The notes: generated by a model from the sequence alone, not told the origin. Shown: positions 15,451 to 41,895, counted from the first letter of the stretch. The stretch is DNA of 64,000 nucleotides from a virus (IMGVR_UViG_3300001919_000035:1-64000); one strand, 5' to 3'. A program made the numbers and translations.

Positions 15451-15523
15451 TCTCTATTAGCTCAGTTGAGTAGAGCGTATGATTTGGGTCATAAGGTCAC
15501 TGGTTCAAGTCCAGTATAGAGAA
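15451..15523 (+). tRNA. tRNA-Pro(TGG)-like with a 6-nt anticodon loop
   Basis: Acceptor TCTCTAT/ATAGAGA, D stem GCTC/GAGC, anticodon stem TATGA/TCATA around TTTGGG, T arm ACTGG-TTCAAGT-CCAGT. Confidence 0.75.
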
Positions 15524-15528
15524 CAAAT

Positions 15529-15729
15529 TTGTGTATTATGAATAAAGAAAAAATAAACAATTTAATATCAGAGTTAAAAGAAATATCTGATAATCATCTA
15601 CGTCGGTGTAACATGGATGAAGAATGCGATCATAGTAGAGCAGATAATATCTTAGTTGAAATTATTAAAGAATTAGGATATCCTGAAGTAGAAGAATATT
15701 TTAATAATATTAAAAAATGGTACGCATAA
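15529..15729 (+). CDS. Small hypothetical protein
   Basis: 66-aa ORF (start possibly 15538). Confidence 0.65.
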   Translation: MCIMNKEKINNLISELKEISDNHLRRCNMDEECDHSRADNILVEIIKELGYPEVEEYFNNIKKWYA

Positions 15730-15757
15730 AATATTAATCATTAAAATAGTTTTTAAT

Positions 15758-15898
15758 ATGAGTCAATTTAAAAAGAATTTAAAAGATGCGTGGGAAGAAA
15801 ATCGAGTCCCATTTATTATTAACTTGTTAGCAGTGGTTCTTTCTATAATTGCTTTAATATTATCAACTATTTGTATGATAGAAGAATATTGGAGTTAA
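15758..15898 (+). CDS. Small single-TM protein (46 aa)
   Basis: MSQFKKNLKDAWEENRVPFIINLLAVVLSIIALILSTICMIEEYWS*, read manually. Confidence 0.55.
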   Translation: MSQFKKNLKDAWEENRVPFIINLLAVVLSIIALILSTICMIEEYWS

Positions 15899-15962
15899 CT
15901 GTAGGATAATTGAATCTATAGTAGTAAATACAGTTAACGAGGTTCGAATCCTAAAAAACTCA
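15892..15962 (+). ncRNA. Degenerate tRNA-like element
   Basis: AGG-TTCGAAT-CCT T-loop, GAGTT/AACTC ends, GTTAACTGTA/TACAGTTAAC stem. Confidence 0.35.
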
Positions 15963-16090
15963 ATAACTTCCCAAGACATTGAGGGCACCAGTTTCTTAGT
16001 TATCCGTTCTTGTCAAACGGATGTAATAGATTACAGTTGCATGTAAGATTCTAAGTTTTAGGTGTAAAATGCAATTAAAAATTTAATAAT

Positions 16091-16333
16091 ATGATAAAAG
16101 TAGTAGAACAGCCTGCAGTAATATATGATAAAATATTACTTATCCGGGCTAACACAAGAGTAGAGGATATGCAGACTATTTTATTACAGATGCATATTAC
16201 TATTTCATCCATTATGGATGTGCAAACAACTTATTATGTTGTAGATCTCTTAAACGATAAACAATATCCGTTTAAATACATTGGTGATGCTTTTACTAAG
16301 TATGATGAAATAAAAGCAAATATGTCACAATAA
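16091..16333 (+). CDS. Hypothetical protein
   Basis: 80-aa ORF. Confidence 0.65.
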   Translation: MIKVVEQPAVIYDKILLIRANTRVEDMQTILLQMHITISSIMDVQTTYYVVDLLNDKQYPFKYIGDAFTKYDEIKANMSQ

Positions 16334-16362
16334 AGGTATAAAATTCTTAAAACATAATCAAT

Positions 16363-16656
16363 ATGAAAGAGAAAGAAAGAGCAAGTAAATTAGGTGAACT
16401 ATTACATATGGATATTCCAGAAGAAGTAGCTAAAGCTTTTAAGGAAAAAAGAAAGAGGAAATATAAATTCCATAAACAGAATTGTAATAGTACAGTACGT
16501 GTAACAATCAAATGTAACAATACTACTATATCATTAGTTGGTACACATGCATTTGAATGGTCTATAATCAAAGAAATGAGTGGTAAAGTAATAATCACTA
16601 CATTTCCTAAAAGAGAAAATGCAATCAATGAGTTTAAGAAATACAAGTCTAAGTAA
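16363..16656 (+). CDS. Basic hypothetical protein
   Basis: 97-aa ORF. Confidence 0.65.
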   Translation: MKEKERASKLGELLHMDIPEEVAKAFKEKRKRKYKFHKQNCNSTVRVTIKCNNTTISLVGTHAFEWSIIKEMSGKVIITTFPKRENAINEFKKYKSK

Positions 16657-17048
16657 ACTGATATGTATATATCCAGCATATGAAGTGATATGCAACTTTC
16701 ATAAAAATAAACTTCTCTAGAGTAAATAACAACCTCATCGTAGATAAATAAGACTGCCGCATATTTACTGCCGCAGCATTATCAGGTTCTAGAGTCTAGT
16801 AGACTTAATATGTTGGGCTGAACGAATGTCTACAACAGTCGAAGCAAATAGTTATTTAAAAAGAACTCTTGTAAAAACTCATGATATAACAAGTATGTAA
16901 ATCTAAAGGACACATTCTCAGATAACATGTGAATGGACTATGAGAAACTAATCTTAAGTAAGAACAGTAGCCTGATCGCATATCTTAGTATTACTTAAGA
17001 TTTTTTATTTGAATCAAACAACAAAAACATAATTTTAAATCAATTAAA

Positions 17049-17228
17049 ATGAAACAAGTAGAAGCAACAAAAAATCCTAGTCCTTTTGAAAAGGCTAAAC
17101 AAGCTGTATATTATCATTCCGATTGTATTCTTTTAACAAAAGAAGAATATCAAGAACTCTGTAAGTATAAAGGATTATACCTTGATTTAAAAGGTGAAAT
17201 CACTAAAATGGCTGAATCATGGAAGTAA
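17049..17228 (+). CDS. Small hypothetical protein (59 aa)
   Basis: MKQVEATKNPSPFEKAK...KMAESWK*, read manually; overlaps the next start. Confidence 0.6.
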   Translation: MKQVEATKNPSPFEKAKQAVYYHSDCILLTKEEYQELCKYKGLYLDLKGEITKMAESWK

Positions 17229-17632
17229 CAGGAATGATAATTGTTGCAAGCATTACTCTAGTAATATCTTTACTTGTACATAAATGTAAGGTAGAGAAAA
17301 CTAGAGCAAGAAAACTACAAACAGTAGATAACACTATAATATCTCTGTTTAGGCTAAAATCAGAAGTCCTAAATATTAAAGATGCAGCACATTCTGCATT
17401 AATAATATCACGGATTAATTCTTTTATCATTGATAAAGAAAATTCAGACTTATTTTGTGTTTGTATTAAATATGAATATGAAAAAGTAATTAGTTCTAGT
17501 AAAGTTAGCAAATACATGCGTAATGATGTAGAACTGGAAGATATTGCTGATAAAAGAGTAAACTCTTTAGAATACATAAATTATCTTATATATCAACTAG
17601 ATAAGTTGAGAAAACAGATAATTTATTCATAA
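17219..17632 (+). CDS. Hypothetical protein with N-terminal TM segment
   Basis: MIIVASITLVISLLV hydrophobic stretch. Confidence 0.65.
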   Translation: MEVTGMIIVASITLVISLLVHKCKVEKTRARKLQTVDNTIISLFRLKSEVLNIKDAAHSALIISRINSFIIDKENSDLFCVCIKYEYEKVISSSKVSKYMRNDVELEDIADKRVNSLEYINYLIYQLDKLRKQIIYS

Positions 17633-17641
17633 CTACAACAT

Positions 17642-17753
17642 CCGCGAATAGTGAAAGAATACATTTGGTACACACTATATAATGTTAATAGGAGTTTAAT
17701 ATTATATAAGATATGATGCATCTATCTTGTAGGTTCGAATCCTACTTCGCGGA
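17642..17753 (+). ncRNA. Expanded tRNA-like cloverleaf (Ser-like, GGA in loop)
   Basis: CCGCGAA/TTCGCGG acceptor, enlarged D loop with GGTA, 13-bp anticodon arm, long variable arm, GTAGG-TTCGAAT-CCTAC. Confidence 0.7.
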
Positions 17754-17775
17754 CTTTACTAACTGTAATAATATT

Positions 17776-18150
17776 ATGGATAAGAATTTTGCGCATTTTC
17801 TTAAACACAAAGGTTATCATCCATATGAATTAAGTCCAAAAGATCGTAAATTCTTTTATTTGAAGGATCCAGAATTTATATCATCTTATGGACCAGTATT
17901 TGTAGAATGGTTCCCTGAATTTAGAGGTACAGAAGTATTTGTACTTGATGTGGATAGAAGTAGAAACTTCGTATACGGTCTACATGAAAAGGGTCATCCA
18001 CCTTGTTTAATTTATCCTAGACCTGCAGTATTAATAGAAGAGCAGGTTAAACATTATTATTCTGATTATATAATAGATAGAATATTTGAGAAATATACGT
18101 GCGAAGAAATTTATCGTGCTATAATAGGCAATTTCTTACTTATTCTATAA
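17776..18150 (+). CDS. Hypothetical protein
   Basis: Track ORF 17713..18150 starts inside the tRNA-like element; MDKNFAHFL at 17776 is the likelier start. Confidence 0.65.
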   Translation: MDKNFAHFLKHKGYHPYELSPKDRKFFYLKDPEFISSYGPVFVEWFPEFRGTEVFVLDVDRSRNFVYGLHEKGHPPCLIYPRPAVLIEEQVKHYYSDYIIDRIFEKYTCEEIYRAIIGNFLLIL

Positions 18151-18151
18151 T

Positions 18152-18297
18152 GAGATACATAGTTTAAGCAATAGCATAGGTAAAACTTTATACGCGCTAA
18201 TTACTCTTTGGGAATACTCTCCAGAATGGATTTATGTTAGTACCGAACACTACAGTGTGTGTATAAAATACAAAGTTCGAATCTTTGTTGTATCTTA
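18152..18297 (+). ncRNA. tRNA-like element with a branched insert replacing the anticodon loop
   Basis: AGATACA/TGTATCT acceptor, GTTT/AAAC D stem with GGTA, TTTATACGC/GTGTATAAA stem enclosing ~60 nt, CAAAG-TTCGAAT-CTTTG. Confidence 0.65.
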
Positions 18298-18322
18298 CTT
18301 TAGATATCCTAAATAAAATTAT

Positions 18323-18676
18323 ATGATAAGAGTAACAATTAAAAAAGGAACAAAGTGGTTACAAGTATTTGGTTTGGCTAGAATATTTGAAAGATATCTC
18401 AAACTAACTAAGTATGATGCTATAAAATTAGCATATACCACACAGAAACATGATGTACTGATCCAAGGATCTAATAAAGATCTTAATCTGTATGCTCTTC
18501 ATGTTAAACTACACAGGTTAAACATGCATGAGACATTAATTGAAGAGTTAGAAGGTTTTAAAGTTCAAGTTAATTTAACTGAATTTGAACCTCAAAGATT
18601 AGGCTATCCATATAGAAACAAGAAGCTATGGGAAAGTAAAACTAATCTACTAATTTTCCGAAGTATAGAATCCTAA
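18323..18676 (+). CDS. Hypothetical protein
   Basis: 117-aa ORF. Confidence 0.65.
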   Translation: MIRVTIKKGTKWLQVFGLARIFERYLKLTKYDAIKLAYTTQKHDVLIQGSNKDLNLYALHVKLHRLNMHETLIEELEGFKVQVNLTEFEPQRLGYPYRNKKLWESKTNLLIFRSIES

Positions 18677-18707
18677 TTTTTATTCACAATTAAACATTTA
18701 TCAAAAA

Positions 18708-19274
18708 ATGGAAAATTCAAACAATGGTGTAGGTACTGGATTTAAAACAGTATTAATCCTGTTGCTATTAGTAACAGTAGGATTATTAAGCTTTTTAGCT
18801 TATAATCAGTTTACCGAGAATAAACTCTTGGATAACAGCTATGTGGAGTATGAAAAGACTCCAACAATTGAAGAAGCTATGTATGAATGGAATGAACAGA
18901 AAGAGAGTGCACGCGAATATGCAGTGTATATCAATCTGCCAGCTTCCATCGTACAAGCATTGTATGAAAAACTTGGTACACAATGTAATGTATCCGATTA
19001 TGTCAAGGAATATGAGCGTAACAGCGAGTATTATGTATCCTTACAAATTGCAAAACAATTACAAGAAAGTGGATTAAAGGATCCAGGTATTGATGGTAAA
19101 AGGCTTAAGAATGTTGAAATAAAGACAGAATTAGAGCCAGCGCCTGTTGAAAAACCTGCTCCTATTCCAGCTGTGCCAAAGGATACTACACAAGTATCAC
19201 ATACGAAACCAATTTCAAACTACTTTTATGATATAGATGGTGGGTATTATTATACCCAGTCTAGGTTGTCATAA
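18708..19274 (+). CDS. Membrane-anchored hypothetical protein
   Basis: N-terminal TM segment (VLILLLLVTVGLLSFLAY) and Pro-rich C-terminal linker. Confidence 0.75.
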   Translation: MENSNNGVGTGFKTVLILLLLVTVGLLSFLAYNQFTENKLLDNSYVEYEKTPTIEEAMYEWNEQKESAREYAVYINLPASIVQALYEKLGTQCNVSDYVKEYERNSEYYVSLQIAKQLQESGLKDPGIDGKRLKNVEIKTELEPAPVEKPAPIPAVPKDTTQVSHTKPISNYFYDIDGGYYYTQSRLS

Positions 19275-19737
19275 AACTTTTTCTTCTAAATAACAATTCA
19301 AAACCACGTTTGCATGTGAATGTAGACGTGGTCATCAGTAAATGACAAACCTGTGGGGCGTAAATAATCTCATGCGTCTGAGTGGTAAATGTAATTCGGC
19401 TTGATGGTGTTAGCACATACATTATCAAAATGTTTTATACACCGCCTTTTAGATGTGCTAGTGGCATGAGTTTTATGATCGTGCGGACGTAAAAATCAGG
19501 TAGATAATAAGAATTGTACTAGCAATACATTTCTGCTGTATCTTTAAACATGTAATTAACGCTATAATTACTCTTTTCATTAGATCTCCTCGCTCATTGA
19601 GAAAGAGTAATTGTTTTCTCTCAAGGGAGTTGCACTTACGCTACAACGTAAGATAAACGAATAGATCAGGCGACCGAAGCCTTATCCAGAATAGTTGTAG
19701 ATATTCTGGCGTCATCAAACTTTTAAACATTATCAAA

Positions 19738-20178
19738 ATGAATGCAAAAGTAAATGGACTAGCATTGGTATTATTACCGGCTAATGTTACAGTACCAGAA
19801 GTAAAACAAATCTTTGATTCAGTATTGGCGAAACTACAAGAAGAAACCATTACTTTAAATGATTTAAGAAGCGGTTATGTTGCAATCTTGAATCAAAATG
19901 ATTTGTTTGGCTTAAATCTGGCAGAAATGCCAAATGAAAAGCTAGTTACTGTAACTGAGAACCTTCTGAGCGCATTTGGTGATAAAACATCAGATCCGCT
20001 AAAGTTTGCTACATCATTTGTATGTGAATACTATGGACCACGTGATTTAATTAATCACGAAGTCGTGACGATGTTTGCAAATGTTAAAGAGCACAGTTCC
20101 GATTGGGACTATTTATCTCGCAAGAAATTAATATTTCTTGTACATCAGTGTAGAGACATCTTATCTAACAATAGATAA
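19738..20178 (+). CDS. Hypothetical protein
   Basis: 146-aa ORF preceded by ATTATCAAAATG. Confidence 0.75.
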   Translation: MNAKVNGLALVLLPANVTVPEVKQIFDSVLAKLQEETITLNDLRSGYVAILNQNDLFGLNLAEMPNEKLVTVTENLLSAFGDKTSDPLKFATSFVCEYYGPRDLINHEVVTMFANVKEHSSDWDYLSRKKLIFLVHQCRDILSNNR

Positions 20179-20180
20179 TT

Positions 20181-20303
20181 ATGAGCAAAACACGTAAAGA
20201 TAGCAGAGAACTTAAGACTACACGCAGGGGAAACCCTGCGCGTAAGCCTAAGATGACTCCTTATAAAAGAGAGTCAAGAAGTGAACGAATGAAGGAATAT
20301 TAG
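20181..20303 (+). CDS. 40-aa highly basic microprotein
   Basis: MSKTRKDSRELKTTRRGNPARKPKMTPYKRESRSERMKEY*, read manually. Confidence 0.55.
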   Translation: MSKTRKDSRELKTTRRGNPARKPKMTPYKRESRSERMKEY

Positions 20304-20580
20304 TCCGCCAGTCTAATATTCTTGTTTATAACTCTTAATAATTAAATTATGAGTAAAAGGTGGTCAACCCCAAGTATGTTAGTAATACATCTAACGCCCT
20401 AACCTCAGTAAAAGGTATATGAAGTCATATACTACGAGTAGTGTGTACATTTTATGTGCAAATGATATATTCACAGGAATATATTAATTAAAAGAAGGGA
20501 AGGAGATGCTCTCGAATAAGAAATAGGAATAAGAGAGACATACTTTTATTAGCAAAACATTTCAAAATTTAACATTAATA

Positions 20581-20877
20581 ATGGAAAAAAGTGAAGTTAA
20601 ACAATTAGTAAAGGAGCTTATTAATAAAGATCCACCATTAAAGAATTATCTAGAAATAAATCATATATACGGTAAATATACGTCTAGGTTAACAAAATAC
20701 GCAATAGCATGTGATCATCGTGACAAAGACTCCGTTAAAGACCGTATTGATGAAATACTTTGTAATCCTTATCCATTATATGGATTTGGTTTATCAAAAT
20801 ATTGTATTTCTAGATCACTCATAACAGACATTTATTATAATAGTATTAACATTTATCATAATAGTATTAACATTTAA
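20581..20877 (+). CDS. Hypothetical protein
   Basis: 98-aa ORF. Confidence 0.65.
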   Translation: MEKSEVKQLVKELINKDPPLKNYLEINHIYGKYTSRLTKYAIACDHRDKDSVKDRIDEILCNPYPLYGFGLSKYCISRSLITDIYYNSINIYHNSINI

Positions 20878-20889
20878 AACATTATCAAA

Positions 20890-21303
20890 ATGGAATCGAA
20901 AGACATTCTATCACAGATTGAAGAAGGCAGAACAGTAAGTAAATCACTTGTTGAATCTGCAAATCAGGAAATTCTGAAGAACAAGGAAGAATCTCTGAAA
21001 AGAGAAGTAATAACAGCACTTGTTGATTCCGAATATTCTATCAGTTATCGTAAATTGGCTCTCCGTCGTGCTCGTGCAATCGAAGAAGTTGAAAAAGAAA
21101 CTATCGAAGCTACCGGTGAAAACCGTAAACGACTCGAAGAAGGAGGGATCACACCAGAACAGTGGCGTAAGAAAGAAGTTGAAATTAATGATGAAAATAT
21201 TAAGAAGATATCTGAAGTACGTGGCAAGTACAATGAATATCTTCGACAGCTGAACAAAATGTCGCCAGATGTTTCTTGGGGAGTAGAAAAAGAACAGTTT
21301 TAA
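20890..21303 (+). CDS. Coiled-coil hypothetical protein
   Basis: 137 aa, E/K/R-rich. Confidence 0.75.
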   Translation: MESKDILSQIEEGRTVSKSLVESANQEILKNKEESLKREVITALVDSEYSISYRKLALRRARAIEEVEKETIEATGENRKRLEEGGITPEQWRKKEVEINDENIKKISEVRGKYNEYLRQLNKMSPDVSWGVEKEQF

Positions 21304-21635
21304 ATAACTATCTTTTACATTCCATCCTCAGTCTCTAGAAGCAAGAGGAATAAAAACGAAGTTTAGTAGTGAAATGAGCATGAATGAACATGCTTACTCA
21401 AGACCTATAAGGCAGTAGTAGGAACTATTGTAGACATCACAGTCAAGGATATACAGACCCTTAGAGGCAGGTTTAATTCCATATATCCAACTATCAAGGT
21501 CTAAGACGAAAGTAATAAGTGCTTTATGCCACCTATTGTTATAGTATCTTATATTTTAATGCAGGTTTATTGTTTAAGTACGAAGTGTATTACTAATAAA
21601 TACTTTTAATAATAGATTATTATAAGTAATCAAAA

Positions 21636-21665
21636 AGGTGTAGGCTGAGAAATTAGCCTACACTT
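21636..21665 (+). terminator. Strong hairpin or terminator upstream of the tmRNA locus
   Basis: AGGTGTAGGCT/AGCCTACACTT 11-bp stem with a T-rich stretch downstream. Confidence 0.55.
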
Positions 21666-21707
21666 ACTATCATTTTTTCATTTTTAAGTGATTTTATTCA
21701 CAATATA

Positions 21708-21974
21708 AGAACTGTATTGTGTCTTACTAGGCTTATTAATCATTGTTAGGACGAGGGTTCGACTCCCTCCAGCTCCACGCTCATAAGAGCTACAAAGGGC
21801 AAAGTAAAACTAGGATTTTTGATCGTGTTAACCGTGCGCCAAGTTTTTAAATTTTAGAACGGTTAAAAGGGGCTGCTTGGATTTGACTAGCAAAATTCAT
21901 TAATAAGATAGGTTCATGTGTGTTTAAATGGCAATATTTTTGTCACAGACTATACTCAACTAGCAGTTGCGTAA
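21708..21974 (+). ncRNA. ssrA: Circularly permuted (two-piece) tmRNA
   Basis: The 3' piece GGACGAGGG-TTCGACT-CCCTC-CAGCTCC-A (to 21777) lies upstream of the 5' piece GGGGCTG-CTTGGATTTGAC (from 21869). G3:U70 pair present. Helix 2 pairs CTAGCAA/TTGTTAG and ATTAATAAG/CTTATTAAT. Tag frame 21930-21974 reads GNIFVTDYTQLAVA*. Outer boundaries approximate. Confidence 0.9.
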
Positions 21975-22002
21975 AGTCACGTGCTAACTACGAAAGTGAG
22001 GA

Positions 22003-22056
22003 CTATCTAGTAGAGTAATCGAGTGGAAAGGTGGGTTCGATTCCCACCTAGATAGC
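22003..22056 (+). ncRNA. Minimal tRNA-like element (acceptor plus T arm, 20-nt linker)
   Basis: CTATCTAG/CTAGATAG stem and GTGGG-TTCGATT-CCCAC. Confidence 0.7.
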
Positions 22057-22080
22057 AACATTTTTAAAAATTTATCAAAA

Positions 22081-22419
22081 ATGAATAAGGATGGTTTAAC
22101 ACTAACAATCGAACATTATCGATTGTATGTAATGGAGAACATGCCCGAATCTTGGAAACGGGCTGCACTGAATCACAATGTACTAGAACAGCTTATTGAA
22201 GCTGTAGCTAGGTATTGTCTAGAACATCGCTTAAAAGGCAGTGAATTGTACTATCATTTACATGAAAATGAATTGATATGTGCAGCATCTTTTGATAGCG
22301 AACCTCAAGGAATAGATTGGTGGATGGACATTAGTTCTGAAGCTAGTATGTTAGAGAATCATGGTTGTATTAACACGTATGCAGAAGATGAAGAAAACGG
22401 CAACACAAATGAAGTATGA
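22081..22419 (+). CDS. Hypothetical protein
   Basis: 112-aa ORF preceded by TTATCAAAAATG. Confidence 0.7.
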   Translation: MNKDGLTLTIEHYRLYVMENMPESWKRAALNHNVLEQLIEAVARYCLEHRLKGSELYYHLHENELICAASFDSEPQGIDWWMDISSEASMLENHGCINTYAEDEENGNTNEV

Positions 22420-22789
22420 TTCATTTAACTTATCACAGTTTGAAACAGAATTTATCTGTGCTGGTGTGCGTGAAAATATAGTAGGAATGTACAAATTTCT
22501 CATTGAGAAAGGTGCACAAACTGTTAACAGTCATTTGGATTCAGTTAGAATATCTAGCGGAAAACCAATTGTATTGTTATGCAAAAATGCTATAGTAAAT
22601 AAGTCCTTCAACACGTTTGGAAATGTCCAAATATTAGATAGAAGTTGGTGGGACTATTATCACAATAAACGTCGTAAAACGTGTAAGACAACTACTAGAA
22701 CGTACAATCTGCCTTCACAATGGAATGTTGTACTTATGGTAGGCTGCGTGTGGAAGGAAGTAGAAGTATTAATACCTGAAGTTGTATGA
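22409..22789 (+). CDS. Hypothetical protein
   Basis: Track ORF 22361..22789; the internal MKYDSF start at 22409 is likelier. Confidence 0.6.
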   Translation: MKYDSFNLSQFETEFICAGVRENIVGMYKFLIEKGAQTVNSHLDSVRISSGKPIVLLCKNAIVNKSFNTFGNVQILDRSWWDYYHNKRRKTCKTTTRTYNLPSQWNVVLMVGCVWKEVEVLIPEVV

Positions 22790-23854: not shown

Positions 23855-23886
23855 GGATATGTGGGGTTCGACTCCCCACATATTCA
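23855..23886 (+). ncRNA. tRNA minihelix (12-bp stem, T-loop)
   Basis: GGATATGTGGGG-TTCGACT-CCCCACATATTC-A. Confidence 0.7.
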
Positions 23887-26838: not shown

Positions 26839-26924
26839 TGAGTGAAAATGATAAATTAGGATATCTTATATATCTTATGCTGTTAGTATTAGCAGCAGGA
26901 ACTCTTTACTTACTCTGGTGTTAA
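26838..26924 (+). CDS. 28-aa single-TM microprotein
   Basis: MSENDKLGYLIYLMLLVLAAGTLYLLWC*, coupled to the previous stop (TAATG). Confidence 0.5.
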   Translation: MSENDKLGYLIYLMLLVLAAGTLYLLWC

Positions 26925-26929
26925 CAATA

Positions 26930-29200
26930 CGCTCTAAAAGAATGGCGTCAGGTCAAACGAGTATATACCTGTAATAAGATGATATACCGTGGTATTGTAG
27001 CTGTACACGTTAAAAGCAATAAGACAGCGTATATTTTATTTCGATAAGTCTGATCAACTTATGGTATAATATAGACAAAAGATACAGGATAGGAGAATAT
27101 GATAACAGCTACCACTGTGATTCAAAAGGTACTATGATAACTTACTATAGAGTTTTATCTTTTTACTCTAGAAAAAGTAGTAAGATAGTAGGCAAGCGTG
27201 CAATCCTACCTGCAATATATTGAGAACCGATTGGTGAATATATTAGTACAGAAAAGACGCGATCTAGCTCAAGAAGAGACGAAGACAAACAATGCATGGA
27301 GTAAACCTAAGTAGGAAGATATTAGCAACATCAACTGAAATCTCCATAAGAATCCGTAGGTACAATCATGTACGGCATCAAATAAGGACGAAAAAGGTTT
27401 AACTTATATTATATCCAAAGTAATATAAGGCTGATAAAAAAGAACTGACTAACGTTCTCGATGGGTCCAAACTATCGTTAAAAATAGCTACTCTAGTGTT
27501 CCATACTACAGTTATTACTGCTTTGTATTACAGTAATAAGGATCTAGACAACATGACATCTGGCTAAGTCATGGAAGTATGTTTGAAAAGAGTGTTTAAC
27601 TACCAAGAAATTAATAGACGATAACTGAAAGCTGAGTGGCTATGTCCCATTAATTAACTAAAAGAGGTAACGGACTTTTATAAATTAATGACAGGTTATC
27701 CGGAGCAGGAGCCAATCCTGTGCTTGAGAGAGCTTATTAAAATGTTCATCTAGCCTTGCAACCTAGATTAAATAGTTTTAGTAAGGGGGTACTCCAGGTG
27801 CTGGGTTAAAGTCTATATAGGAGTGATTACTATGTCTTCTAAGATTCGTTCCAGAGGATTAAGAAAAGTACGGTATTAAACAAAAGTGACCGAGTTTTGT
27901 GTTTGCAATACATTAGTATTGAAGAGTTATGTCACTATAAGTCATGGAAACAAACACACGGAAGTAAAAGCGCCGAAAAGACTACTACAAACTATTGAGA
28001 TATTGTAGCGAAATATAAGAGTACGAATAAATGGAATTCTACCGCCAAAGAAACAAAGGTGTAGTAAATTTAGTTTAAGCTTTCTTTGATAGATATAACG
28101 AAAGTGGGGCTAGGAAATAGTCAATGGGTTAAATTCAAGGCTTACCAACAATAAGTGCTACTGAACTTACCATGGTTTATCACTGACCCGAGAGTTAACG
28201 AGACTCTTAAACAAAAGCGTTAATTAACATGTCTAACTTACGTAGGCCAAAAAGCCGAATAAATATAATCTGTGGAAGTCCTCGCTAGGGAAACTGACTG
28301 CGACCACAGCTTGGCGAATGCGATTGCTTAGTAGTATCAGAGTATAATGCGCAACATTATATGTTCGAGAGAAAGCGTCTCATTGAAGCTTATAGACCTT
28401 TAAGAGTGAACTGAATAAGGAAACATTACTTATAGACCTGTCATAAGCAAGAGTAAGTGAGAAAAGGTGAAAGTCCTTAATCTTCAACCAAGTAAAATAA
28501 ACAAAATCCTAGTCATGGTTACGTTGGCATCCCTGTACTTAGTAATAAGTATTATATGGCGTAAGAGGTAGGTATTAGTGAATAACTATATGAAACCTAT
28601 AAGTTGTTAAAAGCAACAAATACAACGATGGAAATTCCGTTTGTAACCTTGCAGTTGGTAACGTTTCTGTATAAAACGACCGGACATAACTACTTGCCCG
28701 ATAGACAGTATAAAATCATTAGTAAAGATCTAACGTGATTTAAGTAGGTCAATCTGCTTAATATCTACTATATTAGTAAGAGTTGCAAACTACGTTCTCT
28801 TTATTAGTTAGTCCTGAGAAACCAGGAAACCTAGGTGATTTATACGGATCTTCTATAATAGAGATTATAGAATATGGAATACAACATTAAACCAGTACTA
28901 TGCCCATCGATGGGTCTCATTAGCCCTGGTCACAATGCGGTAGATAGTTCCAAAATGAAGAGGAAGTTAATAATAGTTATCTAGTAAACTTAAGATCCTG
29001 TCTCGATCGAAAAGGAGTCTATATAGTCAGTAGACATAATAGCAAGAACAATAGATATTATTAAAACAATCTTAATATAGCAAGTTTAACGCTTACTTCT
29101 GAGCTTTGCATTGAATTGCATACGACCGTGGTTTTAACCTACCTGATATAAGATGATGGTAAATCGTACAGAAACAAGTATAGAAGGAGCATTATTTTTT
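26930..29200 (+). ncRNA. Candidate very large structured non-coding RNA locus (~2.3 kb)
   Basis: No ORF of 60 aa or more on either strand in the track; many perfect 6-9 bp hairpins and nested helices. Strand assumed from context. Confidence 0.5.
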
Positions 29201-29241
29201 ATTTTATTAATTTTATTAACAATTAAAACTTATCAAAAGAA

Positions 29242-32533: not shown

Positions 32534-32605
32534 GTGTGTATAATTCAACTGGAAGAAATGATTCTTACGAGACTCTATATACAGGTTCGAGTCCTGTTAC
32601 ACACA
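32534..32605 (+). tRNA. tRNA with a poorly paired anticodon arm (Val-TAC or Arg-ACG register ambiguous; possibly degenerate)
   Basis: GTGTGTA/TACACAC acceptor, D loop with GG, ACAGG-TTCGAGT-CCTGT. Confidence 0.6.
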
Positions 32606-32657
32606 CAAATCCGTTACATAAACATTTTACAAAATTATCAAAATTAAAAGTAAAGTC

Positions 32658-33506: not shown

Positions 33507-33540
33507 GCAAGTACAGGGGTGCGTCTGTAACGCACAACAC

Positions 33541-33612
33541 AGCGGGATGGCGCAATGGCAGCGCGTCGGTTTCACGAGCCGGAGGTTGATAGTTCGAATC
33601 TGTCTCCCGCAA
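33541..33612 (+). tRNA. tRNA with CAC anticodon (Val) on an initiator-like body
   Basis: Full cloverleaf: A-GCGGGA/TCCCGC-A (1:72 mismatch), GCGC/GCGC, TCGGT-TTCACGA-GCCGG, GATAG-TTCGAAT-CTGTC. Confidence 0.85.
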
Positions 33613-33649: not shown

Positions 33650-33747
33650 GGATAACTAATAAGCTTGATAAACTTATACATGGAACTATATGACTGAATT
33701 TGTACGGTAGATGCACATATAGGGTTGTTCGATTCAACAGTTATCCA
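33650..33747 (+). ncRNA. Expanded tRNA-like element
   Basis: GGATAAC/GTTATCC acceptor, ATAAG/CTTAT hairpin, CTATATG/CATATAG stem with a ~23-nt loop, GTTG-TTCGATT-CAAC. Confidence 0.6.
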
Positions 33748-33764
33748 CTATAATAACCACAGCT

Positions 33765-35714: not shown

Positions 35715-35774
35715 ATTAACAAAGACTTTCAGAATCTAAAATCATAGACTTCCTTTTAACGAAAGAGAGAAGAT

Positions 35775-36344
35775 ATGGTATTAGAACTAAATACAGAATT
35801 GCTTGATAAAATCAAGCCGTTAACTATTAATCAGTTAGTATTTTTAAATCTTGTATTAGACGGAAATCAAAAAAATATCAATGACGTCTTGCTACTCATC
35901 AGTCTGGTAAGCGAGGCAGAAATACAAGATTTAATTGATCGAGACTTCATAATAAAAGAAACCGAGCTAGGCTCAGTAACTTATAGCCCTAGTAACGGAC
36001 TTTTGGAACTTGTCAAAAGAAAGGTTACTATGTTTGATGAGTTTTATGAAGCATATCCGCAAGTTGTCATTCGACCAGATGGTACTAAAAGCTTTTTAAG
36101 AGCAAATAAGAACAATTGTCGTAGAAGATATAATTCAATAGTAGGAAAGAGTACAGCAGCACACCAACATCTCATGGAATGCTTGAAATTTCAATTGAAT
36201 GAATATGCTATGACTGGTCGTATGGGTTATATGAAAACAATGTGGAAATGGCTTACCCAATGTGAATGGGAAGCACTCGACGAGCAAATGAAAGAAAGTG
36301 TTGAATCTGAAAAAGTGAATACTTATGGAACAACACTTATGTAA
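35775..36344 (+). CDS. Putative replication initiation/helicase-loader-like protein
   Basis: HTH-like N-terminus and FDEFYEAYP motif; lies between polB and the helicase. Confidence 0.55.
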   Translation: MVLELNTELLDKIKPLTINQLVFLNLVLDGNQKNINDVLLLISLVSEAEIQDLIDRDFIIKETELGSVTYSPSNGLLELVKRKVTMFDEFYEAYPQVVIRPDGTKSFLRANKNNCRRRYNSIVGKSTAAHQHLMECLKFQLNEYAMTGRMGYMKTMWKWLTQCEWEALDEQMKESVESEKVNTYGTTLM

Positions 36345-37284
36345 GCCATTGCCTTTTAGGCATATTTCAGAGGTAACAGTAGAAACTCTGGAATATATAG
36401 ACATGCGTAGAAAACATGAGATTGAACCTCTTAGAACGAGATGGAAGAAGTTTAATCGAGTCTGTAATGGAGGAATAGAACAAGGTTGTGTATACACCAT
36501 AGTAGGTGCATCAGGATCTGGTAAATCTTCATTTGCAAATATGTTAGAAACTGATTTAATTAGTTTAAACTCTAATAAAGATATTATAGTATTGTCTTTT
36601 TCATTTGAAATGATATCTAGTAGACAAGTGGGTCGAAAGATAAGCAATGCTACAGGTAGAACAACTGGTGAGTTATATAGTGCAGAATCTGATTTAAAAG
36701 ATGATGAATTTGTACGTATAACACAGGAAGCAGAGGAACTTTCGAAGTATCCTATCTATTATGTAGATACTGCAGCTACTGTAGAGCAAATAGAAAGCAC
36801 AATAAAGTATTTTCAACAAAATCTTGCCAAAGATAAATGGCTAATAGTAATATTAGATCATACTTTACTTGTAAGAGGTAAAAGTGATGAAAGTGCTTTA
36901 ATCATTATTAGAGATTTGCAGAACTGTTTTATAAATGCAAAAAAGGTAGGTTGTACAAGTATAATACAGCTCTCACAAATGAACAGGAATATTGAATCTC
37001 CTGATCGCATAAATAACCCAACATGTCACTATCCTATGAGAAGTGACATTTCTTCCGCAGATTCTATCTTTCAAGGAAGTGATGTTGTAATAGTAATAGC
37101 CCGTCCAGAGATTTTAGGCTTTACAATATATGGTCCTCATCGACTCCCAGTACAAAACAAGATATACCTTCATATTCTAAAGAATCGTGAAGGTCAATTA
37201 GCAATTCTTGATTTCGAAAACGACCTAGCACACAACAATATCATCGAAATAGAAAGAGAATCAGAATCTAATCCTACTGATTAG
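36325..37284 (+). CDS. DnaB-like SF4 replicative helicase
   Basis: GASGSGKSS, FSFEM, ILDH, QLSQMNR, KNREG. Confidence 0.92.
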   Translation: MEQHLCKPLPFRHISEVTVETLEYIDMRRKHEIEPLRTRWKKFNRVCNGGIEQGCVYTIVGASGSGKSSFANMLETDLISLNSNKDIIVLSFSFEMISSRQVGRKISNATGRTTGELYSAESDLKDDEFVRITQEAEELSKYPIYYVDTAATVEQIESTIKYFQQNLAKDKWLIVILDHTLLVRGKSDESALIIIRDLQNCFINAKKVGCTSIIQLSQMNRNIESPDRINNPTCHYPMRSDISSADSIFQGSDVVIVIARPEILGFTIYGPHRLPVQNKIYLHILKNREGQLAILDFENDLAHNNIIEIERESESNPTD

Positions 37285-37308
37285 TTCAACAAAAAAATTA
37301 AGACTGAT

Positions 37309-37821
37309 ATGAAAAGTTATATATTCAACTTAGGTAATTCTAATGATACAACAAGTTATTCATCTTCTAATGGAGTAAGTTCTTATACACAGAGTCTGTT
37401 TGACAAAGCATTATGTTCTGTTCCGTATTGGAGTAAAACAAACAATAGTTATACTCCCTTTCGGTCTACATATAGTAATGAAACTCCTATTTTTACTCTT
37501 CCTTTTACTCTAGAAAAGAAGAGTCCGTTGTTTGATCCGAATTTCAAATATAAGAAGATCCAGAAAGATTTGGATGCTTATGAGGCATGGACAGCAGCAA
37601 TGAATAAGATGAAAGCTTATCGTAATTATTACGGTGACCGTAGTTATGATGCATTAGTGGGTGGCATTCCGGCGAATTTCTTTGGAGATTTTGCACAGAT
37701 CGGAGATGTAGTTATTCCTACATATGCAAATCGAGATTATTTTAATCGTCTTCCGCGTGAAAGCGCTTTAACGATTGTAAGCGTATCTATTACTATTTTG
37801 AATATTTTTGTGATCGAATAA
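37309..37821 (+). CDS. Hypothetical protein
   Basis: 170-aa ORF, S/T/Y-rich N-terminus. Confidence 0.75.
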   Translation: MKSYIFNLGNSNDTTSYSSSNGVSSYTQSLFDKALCSVPYWSKTNNSYTPFRSTYSNETPIFTLPFTLEKKSPLFDPNFKYKKIQKDLDAYEAWTAAMNKMKAYRNYYGDRSYDALVGGIPANFFGDFAQIGDVVIPTYANRDYFNRLPRESALTIVSVSITILNIFVIE

Positions 37822-37909
37822 AATTTTAAAATAACATATACTTACTATTTCATATTTTTTCCAATCTTATCATATCGTATCAAACCAGTAAGCTAATAAC
37901 TTCATTATT

Positions 37910-38653
37910 ATGATAGTATTACCTACTGAAAAAGTTAAAGCCAAAGTAAAAAACCCAAGGTTTCTTATATTATTTGGCAAACCAAAGTCAGGCAAAACTA
38001 CTATAGCGAGTGATTTGAAAGATAATCTTATTATTGATCTTGAGGGTGGTTCAGAGTTTCTGGAAGCCCTCAGTGTTCAAGCTCGTAATATAAGCGACTT
38101 AGGCGAAATTGCATCTGCAATTCGTCAGAAAAATAAGGAATGTGGTGGATATTTCTATAAACATATAACAATCGATAATGCAACAAGGCTCGAAGAGCTT
38201 ACGTTATCTTATGCTCTTACTCTTTATAACCAAACTCCAATGGGTAAAGGTTTTAAAGGTGATATAAGAACACTTCCTCAAGGAGGCGGCTGGTTCTATA
38301 TTAGACAAGCAGTAAGGAAAGTTATTGATATGTTTAGAGACTTATGCGAAGAATTTATTCTAGTAGGTCATACTAAGGATAAACTAGTTAATAAGGATGG
38401 TGAAGAACTATCTGAAATGCAATTAGACTTAGCAGGTAAGCTCAGTGATATCATTTGTGGAGAAGCAGATGCTATTGGATATGTCTATAGAAAGAAGAAC
38501 CAGACCTTAATTTCGTTTCAAGGCGGAGAAAACAATATAGTAGAAGCGAGAGCGCCTCATCTTAGAGGACAGAAAATCATTATCGCAGAAAGTGACAATG
38601 ATGGTAGGGTAACAACCTACTGGGAGAGAATATATTTGCCTAACAATGATTAA
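37910..38653 (+). CDS. Sak4/AAA_24-like P-loop ATPase (recombination or ssDNA annealing)
   Basis: ILFGKPKSGKTT, IIDLEGG, ITIDN, ILVGH pattern. Confidence 0.8.
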   Translation: MIVLPTEKVKAKVKNPRFLILFGKPKSGKTTIASDLKDNLIIDLEGGSEFLEALSVQARNISDLGEIASAIRQKNKECGGYFYKHITIDNATRLEELTLSYALTLYNQTPMGKGFKGDIRTLPQGGGWFYIRQAVRKVIDMFRDLCEEFILVGHTKDKLVNKDGEELSEMQLDLAGKLSDIICGEADAIGYVYRKKNQTLISFQGGENNIVEARAPHLRGQKIIIAESDNDGRVTTYWERIYLPNND

Positions 38654-38665
38654 TAATATACGTAT

Positions 38666-39307
38666 ATGTACAGTTCTAGCAGAGCAAAACAGATTGTAAA
38701 AAAGGATGTAGCATTTTTAACTGCAGGTATTCATGATGATGTCTATCTAGTAGGAATTAGATGCGAAACTTCTATTCAAGGAAATAACTTCATTGAATTT
38801 AAGTTTGAAAAAGAAGGTAGAACAATGACTCACACTGAGTGGGAACCTTCAAAATCTAGTCCACAGAAAGAATTAACTCAAGAAGAATTTGAAGATAAAT
38901 TAGACAGACAGTATAAAAGAATTGAACAAATTCTTTTGTGTTTCTATACTTCAGATGAATTGCAGTTTGAAGATGGAGATTTTAAAGCATTTGCAAAATG
39001 GGTAGAAAGTCTACTTACTGCAGATAAAGTAAAACAGACTCCGTTGAGAGTAAAAATAGTATATAACAATAAAGGTTATACTACATTACCTCAATATGCA
39101 CGTTATACATTCATTGAACCAATGAGTGTAGTAAAAGAAGATAAGTCTGTTATTTCTCCATTGAAAATCGATAACTTCGAAAAGCCTATCGTAGCAGACA
39201 ATGAAGCATCTAATGCTAATCCATTTCAAGTAGTAAATGGTACCTTAAATACTGTAGCAGACAATGAAGCATCTGCTACAAATAATGTTGATGATTTGCC
39301 TTTCTAA
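38666..39307 (+). CDS. Putative single-stranded DNA-binding protein
   Basis: Acidic tail ending DDLPF, adjacent to the Sak4-like ATPase. Confidence 0.65.
   Translation: MYSSSRAKQIVKKDVAFLTAGIHDDVYLVGIRCETSIQGNNFIEFKFEKEGRTMTHTEWEPSKSSPQKELTQEEFEDKLDRQYKRIEQILLCFYTSDELQFEDGDFKAFAKWVESLLTADKVKQTPLRVKIVYNNKGYTTLPQYARYTFIEPMSVVKEDKSVISPLKIDNFEKPIVADNEASNANPFQVVNGTLNTVADNEASATNNVDDLPF
39191..39274 (+). repeat. 21-bp direct repeat GTAGCAGACAATGAAGCATCT x2 (VADNEAS)
   Basis: Copies at 39191-39211 and 39254-39274 within the SSB tail. Confidence 0.85.
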
Positions 39308-39330
39308 AAGGCAACCAATAGCAATTGGGG

Positions 39331-39362
39331 GGAGGGGTAACGAAAGTTACTCCTCTTTTTTA
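39331..39362 (+). terminator. Intrinsic terminator
   Basis: GAGGGGTAAC-GAAA-GTTACTCCTC plus T run. Confidence 0.85.
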
Positions 39363-39385
39363 TTAACCTCTAAAAATAAATCAAT

Positions 39386-40735
39386 ATGCTAGATATTCAA
39401 GAGTTAGAATCAAAGTTAAAAGAATCAAAATATAGTTTTAAGAATGGTAAGTTTGTTCCTGGCAACGGACATGCAGATGAAACATCTGGAGGAAATACAG
39501 GAACTTTCTCTGTAAAACAAGAATACTTGGAAGAATATTTCAAATCTAAGCAGACAAGCAAGGATTTTCAAGATCTTGTTGCAAAAGCTCTTGCACAAAT
39601 GAAAAGTGAAGAAAATGGAGAAAACCAGCCAGAAACTGAACGAAAACTTACTGATAAAACTAAATCAAGAGATTTGGAAGTAGGTGATGAATTCTTTGGT
39701 AGTATCATTACTTCTATTAAGAAGGATGGGAAAAAAGTACGTTCAAAACCTATAGACTACTGGAAAGTAGTAGAGAAAGATACACGTTTCGGCATTACTT
39801 TTACTGTAGAAAATAGTAAAGGTGAAAAGTTCAAAACTTCTGCTGGAGGTATCAGTATTAAAAAAGCTGGAGACTTTGAGAAGAAGTTAATGGAAACACG
39901 TAAAAAGCTTGAAAAAGAGCTTGAAGAACAGAAATGTAAGGCTGAAGAAGAAGCTAAGATGATAGATATGTCTAAGCTTGAACCTGAGGCTCAGCTCAAG
40001 AAAATAATTGAGGCTGGCATACGCAACGTTTGGATGGTAGGTCCAGCTGGCTGTGGTAAATCTACTATGGCTCGTAATGTTGCAAAGGAATTAGATGTTC
40101 CTTATTTGTGTATATCCTGTGGTATTGGTACTTCTGCCACAGAATTTGTAGGATATAAATATCCTAATCGTGAAAGTACTAAATTTGCTGAATATTATGC
40201 TAAGCCGTCTATTATCTTAATTGATGAGATGACTGCTTTAGACCCTGCAGTAGGTCAGGTATTAAATGCTGCTCTTGCCAACGGTGAGATTGAGACTACT
40301 ACTGGTTTAGTGTGTCGTCACCCCGAGTGTATCATCATTGCTACTTCTAATACGTTTGGTAATGGTGCGAGTCGACAGTATGTGGCTAATAATCAGTTAG
40401 ACGCATCTACTATTGACCGATTCATCGGTGGCATTATAGAGGTTAACTATTCTGTAGCTTATGAAAGTCAGTATGATACTGATGTAGTAAACTATGTATG
40501 GAAACTTCGTGAGATCATTAAAGAGTGCAACTTACGTCGTATTGCATCTACGCGTATGATACAATCCGGACACGTAATGAAGAAGGCTTATTTCAAAAAC
40601 TGGAAAGACATGTTAATAACTAACTGGACTGATTCTGAAAAAGAAATGGTTCATAAGCAGTTAGTAGAGAATACTACTGCTAGTAAGTTTAAGTTTTTAA
40701 CAGATGGTGATGACAGTTTTAAAGTAGCAGCGTAA
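39386..40735 (+). CDS. MoxR/CbbQ-like AAA+ ATPase with N-terminal extension
   Basis: GPAGCGKST, ILIDEM, LNAALANG, IATSN, LDASTIDRF. Confidence 0.88.
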   Translation: MLDIQELESKLKESKYSFKNGKFVPGNGHADETSGGNTGTFSVKQEYLEEYFKSKQTSKDFQDLVAKALAQMKSEENGENQPETERKLTDKTKSRDLEVGDEFFGSIITSIKKDGKKVRSKPIDYWKVVEKDTRFGITFTVENSKGEKFKTSAGGISIKKAGDFEKKLMETRKKLEKELEEQKCKAEEEAKMIDMSKLEPEAQLKKIIEAGIRNVWMVGPAGCGKSTMARNVAKELDVPYLCISCGIGTSATEFVGYKYPNRESTKFAEYYAKPSIILIDEMTALDPAVGQVLNAALANGEIETTTGLVCRHPECIIIATSNTFGNGASRQYVANNQLDASTIDRFIGGIIEVNYSVAYESQYDTDVVNYVWKLREIIKECNLRRIASTRMIQSGHVMKKAYFKNWKDMLITNWTDSEKEMVHKQLVENTTASKFKFLTDGDDSFKVAA

Positions 40736-40738
40736 ATT

Positions 40739-41548
40739 ATGGGAAAAAGATTAAAGGTAGAGTTTGATGATCTCGAAAAATTTTACACGGAATGTGATAT
40801 TCAAGAAGATACTGGATCTCCTAGTCAATGGAAAGAAATTAGTGAAAAAAACGAACCAAGTTGGGTTGGTCTACCACTAGAAGAAATTAAAAAATCTAAG
40901 TATTTTTACAATAAAGGCTTAGATAAACTTGGTTCTTTAACTGAAGAAATACTAGGAGGTTGTTCTAAAACGGAGTTCAAGTATGATGAACAGGATGGTG
41001 ATGATATGAATTATGATAGATTTATCGAAGGATTACCATCTATGAAGAAAAGAGTAAGGAAAGGAGGAAATAAAAACGGAAGATTTATCAATCTTCATGT
41101 AGGTATATGTGAATGTTGTGCTGTAAGTCATAAAGATATGCTATATAAGGCATATACTGCAGTAAAATTAGCAGATTATCTTGAATCTCAAGGTTATAGA
41201 GTTCAGATTACAACATTTGCAGAAGTAGCCAGTTTAGGTTATTTCAAGAGTGAAATTTTAGATTATCTATTAGTAGAAGTTACTATTAAGAAATTTGAAG
41301 ATCCTTTATTATTACCTACTATCCTTACTTGTGTATCCCCTTGGATGTTTAGACATCATATGTTTAAATTTTGGACAGCAAAATTTAGATGTGGTTGGGG
41401 ATTAGGTCATGTACCAAGTATGACTAGACAAAGTAATAAGGAACATATCTTTATTTCTTCAGGTGAGTGTCTTGATGAAGCAGATGCTAATCGAAAGATT
41501 AAAGAGATCCAAAAAATCTTTGAAGATGAACATGGGGACGAAGAATAA
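40739..41548 (+). CDS. Putative vWA-like partner of the MoxR ATPase
   Basis: Directly downstream. INLHVGI...AVKLADYLESQGYRVQI resembles a vWA strand-helix-strand unit; no clear MIDAS DxSxS. Confidence 0.55.
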   Translation: MGKRLKVEFDDLEKFYTECDIQEDTGSPSQWKEISEKNEPSWVGLPLEEIKKSKYFYNKGLDKLGSLTEEILGGCSKTEFKYDEQDGDDMNYDRFIEGLPSMKKRVRKGGNKNGRFINLHVGICECCAVSHKDMLYKAYTAVKLADYLESQGYRVQITTFAEVASLGYFKSEILDYLLVEVTIKKFEDPLLLPTILTCVSPWMFRHHMFKFWTAKFRCGWGLGHVPSMTRQSNKEHIFISSGECLDEADANRKIKEIQKIFEDEHGDEE

Positions 41549-41559
41549 GTATTGCGAGA

Positions 41560-41673
41560 GAGTAATCCGGCGAACTACTGGCCTGGGGAAGGCAAACTTG
41601 AAAAGAGTGTAGGGTACTTAGGTGTGGCGCTAATATTATATTAGCACGGGGGTTCGAATCCCCCCTAGTTACA
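41560..41673 (+). ncRNA. Degenerate tRNA-like element
   Basis: GGGGG-TTCGAAT-CCCCC T arm preceded by a GCTAATAT/ATATTAGC hairpin; acceptor pairing poor, 5' end uncertain. Confidence 0.4.
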
Positions 41674-41810
41674 ACAGATTCTTTTTAATTTAACAATATA
41701 TAGTCTATAATATATTCTAATGGCTGGAAGAAAGTAAGCACATAACTACTACTAATCAGGCTAATACGGTTCATGAGAATGAGTCGTCGGCGGTTGAGTG
41801 GAGGTAGATA

Positions 41811-41895
41811 GTAGAAAGATGTGTGAATGGTCCAGATACGATTCGCTAACTAGCGTGTATCTAAATGGGGAGGTTCGAGTCCTCCACTTTCTACA
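41811..41895 (+). ncRNA. tRNA-like element directly upstream of primase
   Basis: GTAGAAAG/CTTTCTAC stem, AGATAC/GTATCT arm, GGAGG-TTCGAGT-CCTCC. Confidence 0.6.

Follow-up and report, generated by a model that had tools for sequence, protein, structure and literature searches.

What are the T-loop elements that recur between genes along one arm of a phage genome: tRNA genes, remains of tRNA genes or something made from them? The question is raised by IMGVR_UViG_3300001919_000035:1-64000, a viral stretch of 64,000 nucleotides (nt) which is part of a 74-kb IMG/VR virus record and is referred to here, at its full length, as the window. A sequence-only reading saw between 15451 and 41895 a graded series of about twelve transfer RNA (tRNA)-derived elements that selectively keep the acceptor/T domain, and it offered three roles for them: punctuation signals that cut the polycistronic early mRNA, decoys for tRNA-targeting defences or synthetases, and chargeable RNAs without an anticodon. 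Our analysis favours the first of these. We propose that the elements are phage t-elements - RNase P and RNase Z cutting signals embedded in polycistronic RNA - and give this proposal a probability of roughly 55%.

That the early arm carries such a series is borne out by counting. The motif GGTTCRANTCC matches ten times in the window, all on the + strand and between 15502 and 41872, against 0.10 +/- 0.30 matches expected from dinucleotide-preserving shuffles, none of which reached ten; the reversed pattern, run as a control, has no match in the window. A relaxed T-loop pattern adds three positions (18275, 33592, 33727), and a strict descriptor (7-bp acceptor, 5-bp T stem and TTCRANT loop) retrieves seven elements on the + strand and none on the - strand (0.01 in shuffles). 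ARAGORN and Rfam, by comparison, recognise just three tRNA-like genes (15451, 32534, 33541) plus a permuted transfer-messenger RNA (tmRNA). These three pass the gathering threshold of Rfam RF00005 (bit scores in Table 1), which the other nine elements do not reach. The earlier statement that only one clean cloverleaf exists needs correction: 33541 alone offers a readable anticodon (CAC) from a cloverleaf with a 7-nt loop, but 15451 and 32534 also score above the Rfam threshold; ARAGORN lists these two as 'tRNA-???' with 2-base anticodons, and folding gives them 4-nt loops. The list of elements itself needs three amendments: it lacked a T arm at 21756 that belongs to the acceptor piece of the tmRNA, 15892 proves to be broken, and the element placed at 41811 really starts at 41729. 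A scan of the window for other hairpins (at least 9 bp, 7-nt loop) revealed no second minihelix with a T loop.

Apart from the tmRNA piece, the remnant 15892 and the tRNA 33541, the elements combine a T arm (loop of the GGTTCRANYCC type) with an acceptor-like stem on which it stacks. Where an anticodon domain would be expected they have a hairpin with a 4-nt loop, a long insert or a short linker, or nothing at all, and the D/anticodon body is non-canonical or missing (Table 1). All elements lie on the coding (+) strand among + strand open reading frames (ORFs), with which they would be co-transcribed.

Table 1. Structured RNA features of the window, with their 3' tails and the distance to the next start codon
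Position	Strand	Feature	Stems and calls	Body	3' tail and next ATG
15451..15523	+	tRNA-like cloverleaf	acceptor TCTCTAT/ATAGAGA, D arm, T arm; 59.1 bits	6-bp stem with UUGG loop in place of anticodon loop; minimum free energy z = -3.1	discriminator A15523, then C; ATG 14 nt downstream
15892..15951	+	truncated tRNA-like remnant	T stem down to 3 bp		
17642..17753	+	tRNA-like domain	acceptor CCGCGAA/TTCGCGG (7 bp), T arm GTAGG/CCTAC	80-nt insert of two hairpins; z = -3.07	discriminator A, then C; ATG 17776, 22 nt downstream, probable start of next gene
18152..18297	+	tRNA-like domain, over-long stack	8-bp acceptor GAGATACA/TGTATCTT, 6-bp T stem	110-nt insert	
19331..19501	+	Hatchet self-cleaving ribozyme	Rfam; same arm and orientation		
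20360..20548	+	RAGATH-9 RNA	Rfam		
21724..22002	+	two-piece (permuted) tmRNA	ARAGORN permuted call; Rfam RF04321		
22003..22056	+	minimal tRNA-like domain	acceptor CTATCTAG/CTAGATAG, T arm GTGGG/CCCAC	20-nt linker	CAAC; ATG 25 nt downstream
23855..23886	+	perfect tRNA minihelix	7+5 bp stem, loop TTCGACT		discriminator A, then C; sigma-factor ATG 18 nt downstream
32534..32605	+	tRNA-like cloverleaf	37.9 bits	anticodon loop replaced by AUGA-capped (4-nt loop) hairpin	discriminator A, then C; ATG 52 nt downstream
33541..33612	+	genuine-looking tRNA (tRNA-Val)	anticodon CAC; 55.6 bits		
33615..33649	+	portable T-arm module	GTCA...TGGC 4-bp stem, T arm AGAGG/CCTCT	7-nt bulge	
33650..33747	+	tRNA-like domain before DNA polymerase	acceptor GGATAACT/AGTTATCC (8 bp), T stem GTTG/CAAC (4 bp)	66-nt insert	discriminator A, then C; ATG 17 nt downstream
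41562..41673	+	T-arm RNA	T arm GGGGG/CCCCC, acceptor GTAATCCG/CTAGTTAC; weak Rfam tmRNA 3'-end match	three covarying hairpins	
41729..41893	+	tRNA-like domain before primase	acceptor AGAAAGT/ACTTTCT, T arm GGAGG/CCTCC	133-nt insert with hypervariable hairpin	discriminator A, then C; ATG 41912, 18 nt downstream

Whether these folds matter to the phage, which is of the crAss-like (Suoliviridae) type, can be asked of its relatives, the nearest named one being the crAss-like phage cr10_1 (Crassvirales, Suoliviridae, Boorivirinae; ~81% identity in patches). We fetched loci of relatives anchored on the sigma gene (~90), an AAA gene (15) and the primase gene (80), designated by L-numbers (cr10_1 being L009); BLAST missed most elements in them, and recovery succeeded only by synteny together with the T-loop motif. 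In two formal tests of covariation, the check that the sequence-only reading had suggested, seven pairs each time proved to be doubly changed. For the minihelix upstream of the sigma gene (23855), the five variants in close clades have 7 of 12 pairs doubly changed and 96.7% of cells paired (slid controls, 48-58%), a value reached by none of 500 shuffles. For the element upstream of the polymerase gene (33650), all 21 pairs are fully paired in nine sequences, seven of them doubly changed, with 24-56% in slid controls and again 0/500 shuffles. Across 68 distinct sequences the T stem at the polymerase slot is 92% paired (25-40% when slid), and behind the tmRNA the corresponding figure is 98.8% in 65 distinct sequences (53-63% when slid) with three to four pair types per position. 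Compensatory changes are also found at 41729, where the T arm reads GGTGG/CCACC in L119 and the acceptor GAGAGT/ACTCTC in cr10_1. The family of 32534, which was compared by eye from exact windows and without a formal counter (MAFFT misaligned its 3' acceptor strand), keeps acceptor, D arm and T stem in three clades with four of the five T pairs doubly changed, and its anticodon-arm replacements are unrelated stems, each a neat hairpin capped by AUGA, UUUU or GAAA.

These data bear directly on the idea that the elements are functionless, decaying tRNA pseudogenes. Such decay would suit 15892, plainly broken, and the turnover of elements at some slots (cr10_1 lacks 15451 and 17642), yet decay does not predict compensatory changes that keep stems, T stems that remain 92-99% paired over 65-68 distinct sequences or replaced anticodon arms that stay neat hairpins. 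To our minds it is a very improbable explanation. That the acceptor/T domain is selectively retained rather than left to neutral decay, as had been argued from the sequence, is strongly supported by the compensatory changes, the 12-bp stack and the fixed positions before start codons. The body, by contrast, is dispensable, the same slots holding a full cloverleaf, 4-nt-loop hairpins, inserts of 50-130 nt or linkers of 13-20 nt. Acceptor stems, said to be mostly kept, are so overall, with the exception of 41562 (listed at about 41560), where 6 of 8 pairs form in the window while the stem is a perfect 8 bp in L125 and L126 and poor in cr10_1. Even the broken 15892, in which a family-wide conserved block of 46 nt (15953-15998) takes the place of the 3' half, has an intact counterpart (T arm GTGGG/CCCAC) in L021, a 98% relative.

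Further candidates were set aside. A DNA-level role as promoter or B-box-like motif is rejected because both strands of the stems change together, and an ECF-type -35/-10 pair over 32534 was dropped because the T loop and the conserved CGTTA are not equally far apart in the two genomes compared, the window and cr10_1 (a difference of 4 nt). Intron-containing tRNAs do not fit inserts of 13-133 nt, which are too short for group I introns, and Rfam finds none of these in the window; nor do intrinsic terminators, since the helices have no U tract following them.

Besides their structure the elements share an address. In the window they start 0-11 nt after the upstream stop codon, and eight out of nine end 14-25 nt before the next ATG (counting ATG 17776 for 17642). 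Several abut or overlap the stop: the first base of 23855 directly follows a TAA, 18152 begins 1 nt past its upstream stop, and where TAA is followed by the element's G in the window, TA-G is shared in L022. In cr10_1 and L022 the gene homologous to the one downstream of 18152 has a T-loop element ~47 nt in front of it. At the DNA polymerase gene, 68 of 69 distinct loci have a T loop 38-45 nt and a helix end 16-25 nt ahead of the ATG. This slot has 19 different acceptor strands, and its discriminator is A in the window's clade and T in others. At the primase gene, 34 of the 65 distinct loci hold an element that satisfies the strict test; it lies 36-45 nt from the ATG, and its helix ends 16-25 nt before that codon. 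The remaining loci mostly have degenerate T loops in the same place. At the polymerase slot of some relatives ARAGORN names a tRNA-His(ATG) or tRNA-Ile(AAT), but given A34 anticodons and 3-nt loops these are forced calls. In all, such A34 calls (His-ATG, Ile-AAT, Tyr-ATA, Asn-ATT) were seen at L057 18515-18586, L028 18786-18862, L026 2901-2976 and L048 2494-2576, and at least the His and Ile ones, with 3-4-nt loops and in the slot upstream of the polymerase gene, are look-alikes rather than decoders.

A fixed start-codon distance (~16-25 nt across the family) and a place in front of regulatory and replication genes would also be expected if the folds simply stayed on the mRNA as cis regulators of the downstream gene, be it as a stabilising paired 5' end or as an operator through which a tRNA-binding host or phage protein sets translation of polymerase, primase and sigma factor. 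However, the element in the most conserved slot follows an RNA, the tmRNA, and not a coding gene, and the strict T loop and 12-bp stack point to tRNA-processing enzymes. We consider such cis regulation unlikely as the main function, and it overlaps with the t-element reading inasmuch as RNase P could create the very 5' end in question.

The tmRNA context deserves a closer look. The acceptor piece (~21724-21778) comprises the T arm at 21756 and CAGCTCC, then A-C; after a 90-nt spacer the coding piece starts with GGGGCTG (21869-21875), which pairs with CAGCTCC (21770-21776) into a 7-bp acceptor stem with G3:U70. The acceptor 3' half with its T arm thus lies upstream of the 5' half, as in permuted tmRNAs. 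A tag frame with a hydrophobic degradation tail, GNIFVTDYTQLAVA followed by a stop codon, runs from 21930 to 21974 and matches the tags of relatives (GNNFVTDYTQLAVA, GNTMFVTDYTGLVAA, GKTFVTDYVRLSA); the tag ANYESEDYLVE that ARAGORN reports for the window is a mis-call; the conserved tag is the former. The window copy scores 46.5 bits against an RF04321 gathering threshold of 47, the relative L036 reaches 51.1, and a tmRNA is annotated at the corresponding site of cr10_1. Pairing joins the 3' tail of the coding piece (AGTGAGG) to the 5' end of the acceptor piece (TCTTACT), and element 22003 begins right where this pairing stops. In relatives, too, a T-arm element follows the conserved coding-piece tail (65 distinct sequences), with a stack split as 5+7, 6+6, 7+5 or 8+4, a tail ACAA and a body that ranges from a canonical tRNA-Ile(GAT) cloverleaf in L026 down to linkers of 13-20 nt. 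The elements resemble the tRNA-like domain of tmRNA, of which the arm holds a true two-piece example, in having acceptor stem and T arm without an anticodon arm, but elements other than the tmRNA have no tag reading frame, G3:U70 or pseudoknots and are not tmRNAs. Just before the acceptor piece sits a conserved hairpin (21701-21723; CACAATA-TAAGAACTG-TATTGTG) whose loop is invariant in relatives and which may be a processing or start signal for the 5' end of that piece.

A related arrangement is seen at tRNA-Val 33541, a tRNA with an A1xA72 mismatch (an initiator-like trait) that we found only in the window and L021. The 33615 module follows 2-3 nt past its A-C end, and in the cr10_1 group the same module directly follows the A-C with which the tmRNA acceptor piece ends; such a placement would be expected of a portable downstream RNase P site. 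In L021 the counterpart of this tRNA is followed by a stretch of ~150 nt that is similar to the spacer in the tmRNA of the cr10_1 group, a sign that tRNA and tmRNA loci may have recombined.

The 3' ends link the elements to real tRNAs. Nearly all end in discriminator A then C with no encoded CCA, and this tail, rightly noticed before, is common to the family's genuine tRNA genes: Leu-TAA, Arg-TCT, Lys-TTT and an amber suppressor (CTA) end A-C-(A/T), again without encoded CCA. Hence the elements present the same 3' context to the same enzymes. In principle A-C tails would permit CCA addition, and one may envisage excised RNAs acting in trans as tRNA mimics that titrate or mislead acceptor-end toxins, synthetases, EF-Tu or modification enzymes, all the more as early transcripts hold many copies and the acceptor/T half is the part that such proteins bind. 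Yet a trans-acting mimic has no need for a position lock before particular start codons or after the tmRNA, and acceptor sequences vary freely between clades (at least 19 variants at the polymerase slot), which means that no specific identity is kept; without an anticodon, moreover, anticodon nucleases could not be decoyed. The decoy proposal of the sequence-only reading gains nothing from elements that are position-locked in cis, and we think trans action improbable. Its third proposal, chargeable RNAs without an anticodon, which on our reading of it would supply amino acids by a route other than normal decoding, fares worse and has very little to recommend it: minihelices can be charged by some synthetases and the neighbouring tmRNA has G3:U70, but besides the tmRNA the window elements show no G3:U70 or other recognisable minihelix identity set, acceptor sequence and even discriminator vary between clades, and no aminoacyl-transferase-like protein is among the 20 arm proteins that we scanned with Pfam. 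These scans identified only AAA ATPase and primase domains and no tRNA-processing protein either, so that host enzymes would do the processing.

Punctuation, in turn, is the best anatomical fit: the elements follow a stop codon by 0-11 nt and precede an ATG by ~14-25 nt, one of them lies flush with the end of the tmRNA coding piece, and Hatchet ribozymes occur in the arm. On the t-element reading, former tRNA genes would have lost decoding and been kept as cis-acting signals for host tRNA-end-processing enzymes. The early/replication arm would be transcribed as long + strand RNAs in which each element folds into an acceptor/T-arm stack that RNase P, RNase Z and the CCA-adding enzyme could recognise. 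An RNase P cut at the 5' edge would release the upstream RNA with an end at its stop codon or a few bases away, and the cut at 22003 would trim the 3' end of the tmRNA coding piece. Processing at the 3' side, presumably after the discriminator as in the phage's CCA-less tRNAs, would leave the downstream message with a leader of ~14-25 nt; alternatively, the fold may be retained as its paired 5' end.

Several points weigh against this proposal. Every cleavage step and any effect on expression is something we infer from the folds, their covariation, the fixed slots and the 3' context common with real tRNAs. RNase P and RNase Z measure a 12-bp acceptor/T stack, and some stacks are 13-14 bp (18152, 22003) or 11 bp long, i.e. 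non-ideal substrates. The stack-length counts (T loop to helix end), namely 12 bp in 39/68 and 12-13 bp in 57/68 sequences at the polymerase slot, 12 bp in 37/65 and 11 bp in 15/65 behind the tmRNA and 12 bp in 31 of the 34 passing primase loci, are biased because the acceptor 5' strands at these three slots were picked by best pairing; the T-stem statistics are unbiased. Element 32534 is separated from the next ATG by 52 nt and not by ~20 nt; going by work on Bacillus RNase Z, a C at position 74 may weaken cutting by this enzyme; and genome compaction around any structured element could give tight spacing too.

The nearest precedent is provided by the t-elements of plant mitochondria (Forner et al. 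2007, PMC1920247). They were found with the same motif and combine a GGTTCRANYCC T loop and an acceptor-like stem with a non-canonical body; RNase P and RNase Z cut them, and their borders match mRNA 5' and 3' ends that were mapped by experiment. For wheat t-elements the same paper cites Hanic-Joyce et al. 1990. The T loop and the acceptor-like stem are the same, and so would be the embedding in longer transcripts beside coding regions. The mitochondrial elements are, however, organellar and few with mapped ends, whereas those of the phage number about a dozen per genome, occupy family-wide slots ~20 nt before start codons and in one case are coupled to a tmRNA. Among phages, a catalogue of candidate RNAs from IMG/VR (PMC10690425) contains 'tRNA or tRNA-like' entries, conserved structures that tRNA finders call only sometimes, but it gives no anatomy, positional rule, crAss-like example or processing hypothesis. 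Our literature search brought up no account of such elements in phages, crAss-like or other, and no paper that connects crAss-like phages to tRNA-like elements, to RNase P or to the function of tmRNA.

Two other systems come to mind. In animal mitochondrial DNA, excision of tRNAs flush with coding regions by RNase P and RNase Z releases the mRNAs, and cuts at or inside stop codons are possible there, much as the minihelix abuts a TAA or overlaps a TAG; but the mitochondrial units are working tRNAs, and the phage elements mostly have no anticodon loop. The mascRNA and MEN-beta modules and the tRNA-like RNAs of murine gammaherpesvirus 68 do not decode either; RNase P and RNase Z process these tRNA mimics and thereby set where an adjacent functional RNA ends, a parallel to 22003 at the end of the tmRNA coding piece, though in a eukaryotic nuclear or herpesviral setting with RNA polymerases II and III and a single module per transcript. 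To our knowledge, tRNA-type punctuation is so far known from mitochondria and not from phages. If RNase P and RNase Z do cut here, a phage group that is among the most abundant in the human gut organises its early and replication gene expression in this way. This would also give a function to 'odd tRNAs' that are annotated with impossible anticodons (A34 His, Ile, Tyr, Asn) or missed, and explain the origin of the coding-piece 3' end in the two-piece tmRNA. Being short and defined, the elements might furthermore serve as compact processing signals for synthetic biology in Bacteroidales.

Other structured RNAs accompany the elements. Beyond the Hatchet and RAGATH-9 of the window, seven distant relatives (L028, L035, L036, L046, L048, L057, L092) carry one to three Hatchets each, most two or three and 17 in total, along with RAGATH-6, -7, 7-assoc, -9, -14 and -20 and, in L092, a group I intron, all on the + (coding) strand of the same early arm. 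Suoliviridae early arms hence look like a natural home of RAGATH motifs, and if RNase P and RNase Z do cut at the t-elements, Hatchet ribozymes and RAGATH RNAs would gain a concrete setting as cutters of the same transcripts. One step further, the arm might be a site of coordinated RNA processing by t-elements cut by RNase P and RNase Z, self-cutting Hatchets and the two-piece tmRNA. Cuts at stop codons would then leave messages that end at the stop or one base short of it, and the phage tmRNA, itself matured by a t-element, would free ribosomes stalled on such ends. This scheme is speculative and rather improbable; if true, it would make this the first bacteriophage known to express its genes by a tRNA-punctuated programme, and one that brings its own ribosome rescue.

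As to the surroundings, GC skew and ORF direction place the + strand arm at ~13.5-45.7 kb between - strand arms, with small unknown genes and genes for an ECF-type sigma factor, AAA ATPases, DNA polymerase, helicase and primase. In this otherwise dense arm, ~2.4 kb (26840-29240) hold no ORF of at least 50 amino acids (table 11), and cr10_1 has an unannotated gap there too. The 46-nt block at 15953-15998 (AAAAAACTCAATAACTTCCCAAGACATTGAGGGCACCAGTTTCTT), itself unannotated, is 100% identical in at least ten Suoliviridae genomes of different subfamilies and is followed 50-110 nt downstream by a second conserved block (16052-16073; TAAGTTTTAGGTGTAAAATGCA); the two could be a promoter or regulatory region or a small RNA. 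A ribozyme in a tRNA trailer was considered for the 46-nt block and rejected, there being no Rfam match, no sequence variation and, in other genomes, no preceding T arm. Between 32534 and the next ATG, the block at 32606-32657 (TCCGTTACA ... TAAACATTTTACA ... ATCAAAA) is kept in all three clades and may be a promoter or leader, which would explain the unusual spacing of that element. A GC-rich hairpin at 33518-33534 (GTGCGT-CTGTA-ACGCAC), between the upstream stop codon and the tRNA-like cluster before the polymerase, covaries in L022 (GCGCGT/ACGCGC), has GAAA or TTTC loops in the cr10_1 group and could protect the upstream 3' end. Finally, two relatives (L078 14376-14450; L087 16814-16888) share a tRNA scaffold that is an amber suppressor (anticodon CTA) in the one and a tRNA-Lys (TTT) in the other, in the slot that holds tRNA-Arg(TCT) in most relatives, and this swap may bear on stop-codon recoding in the family.

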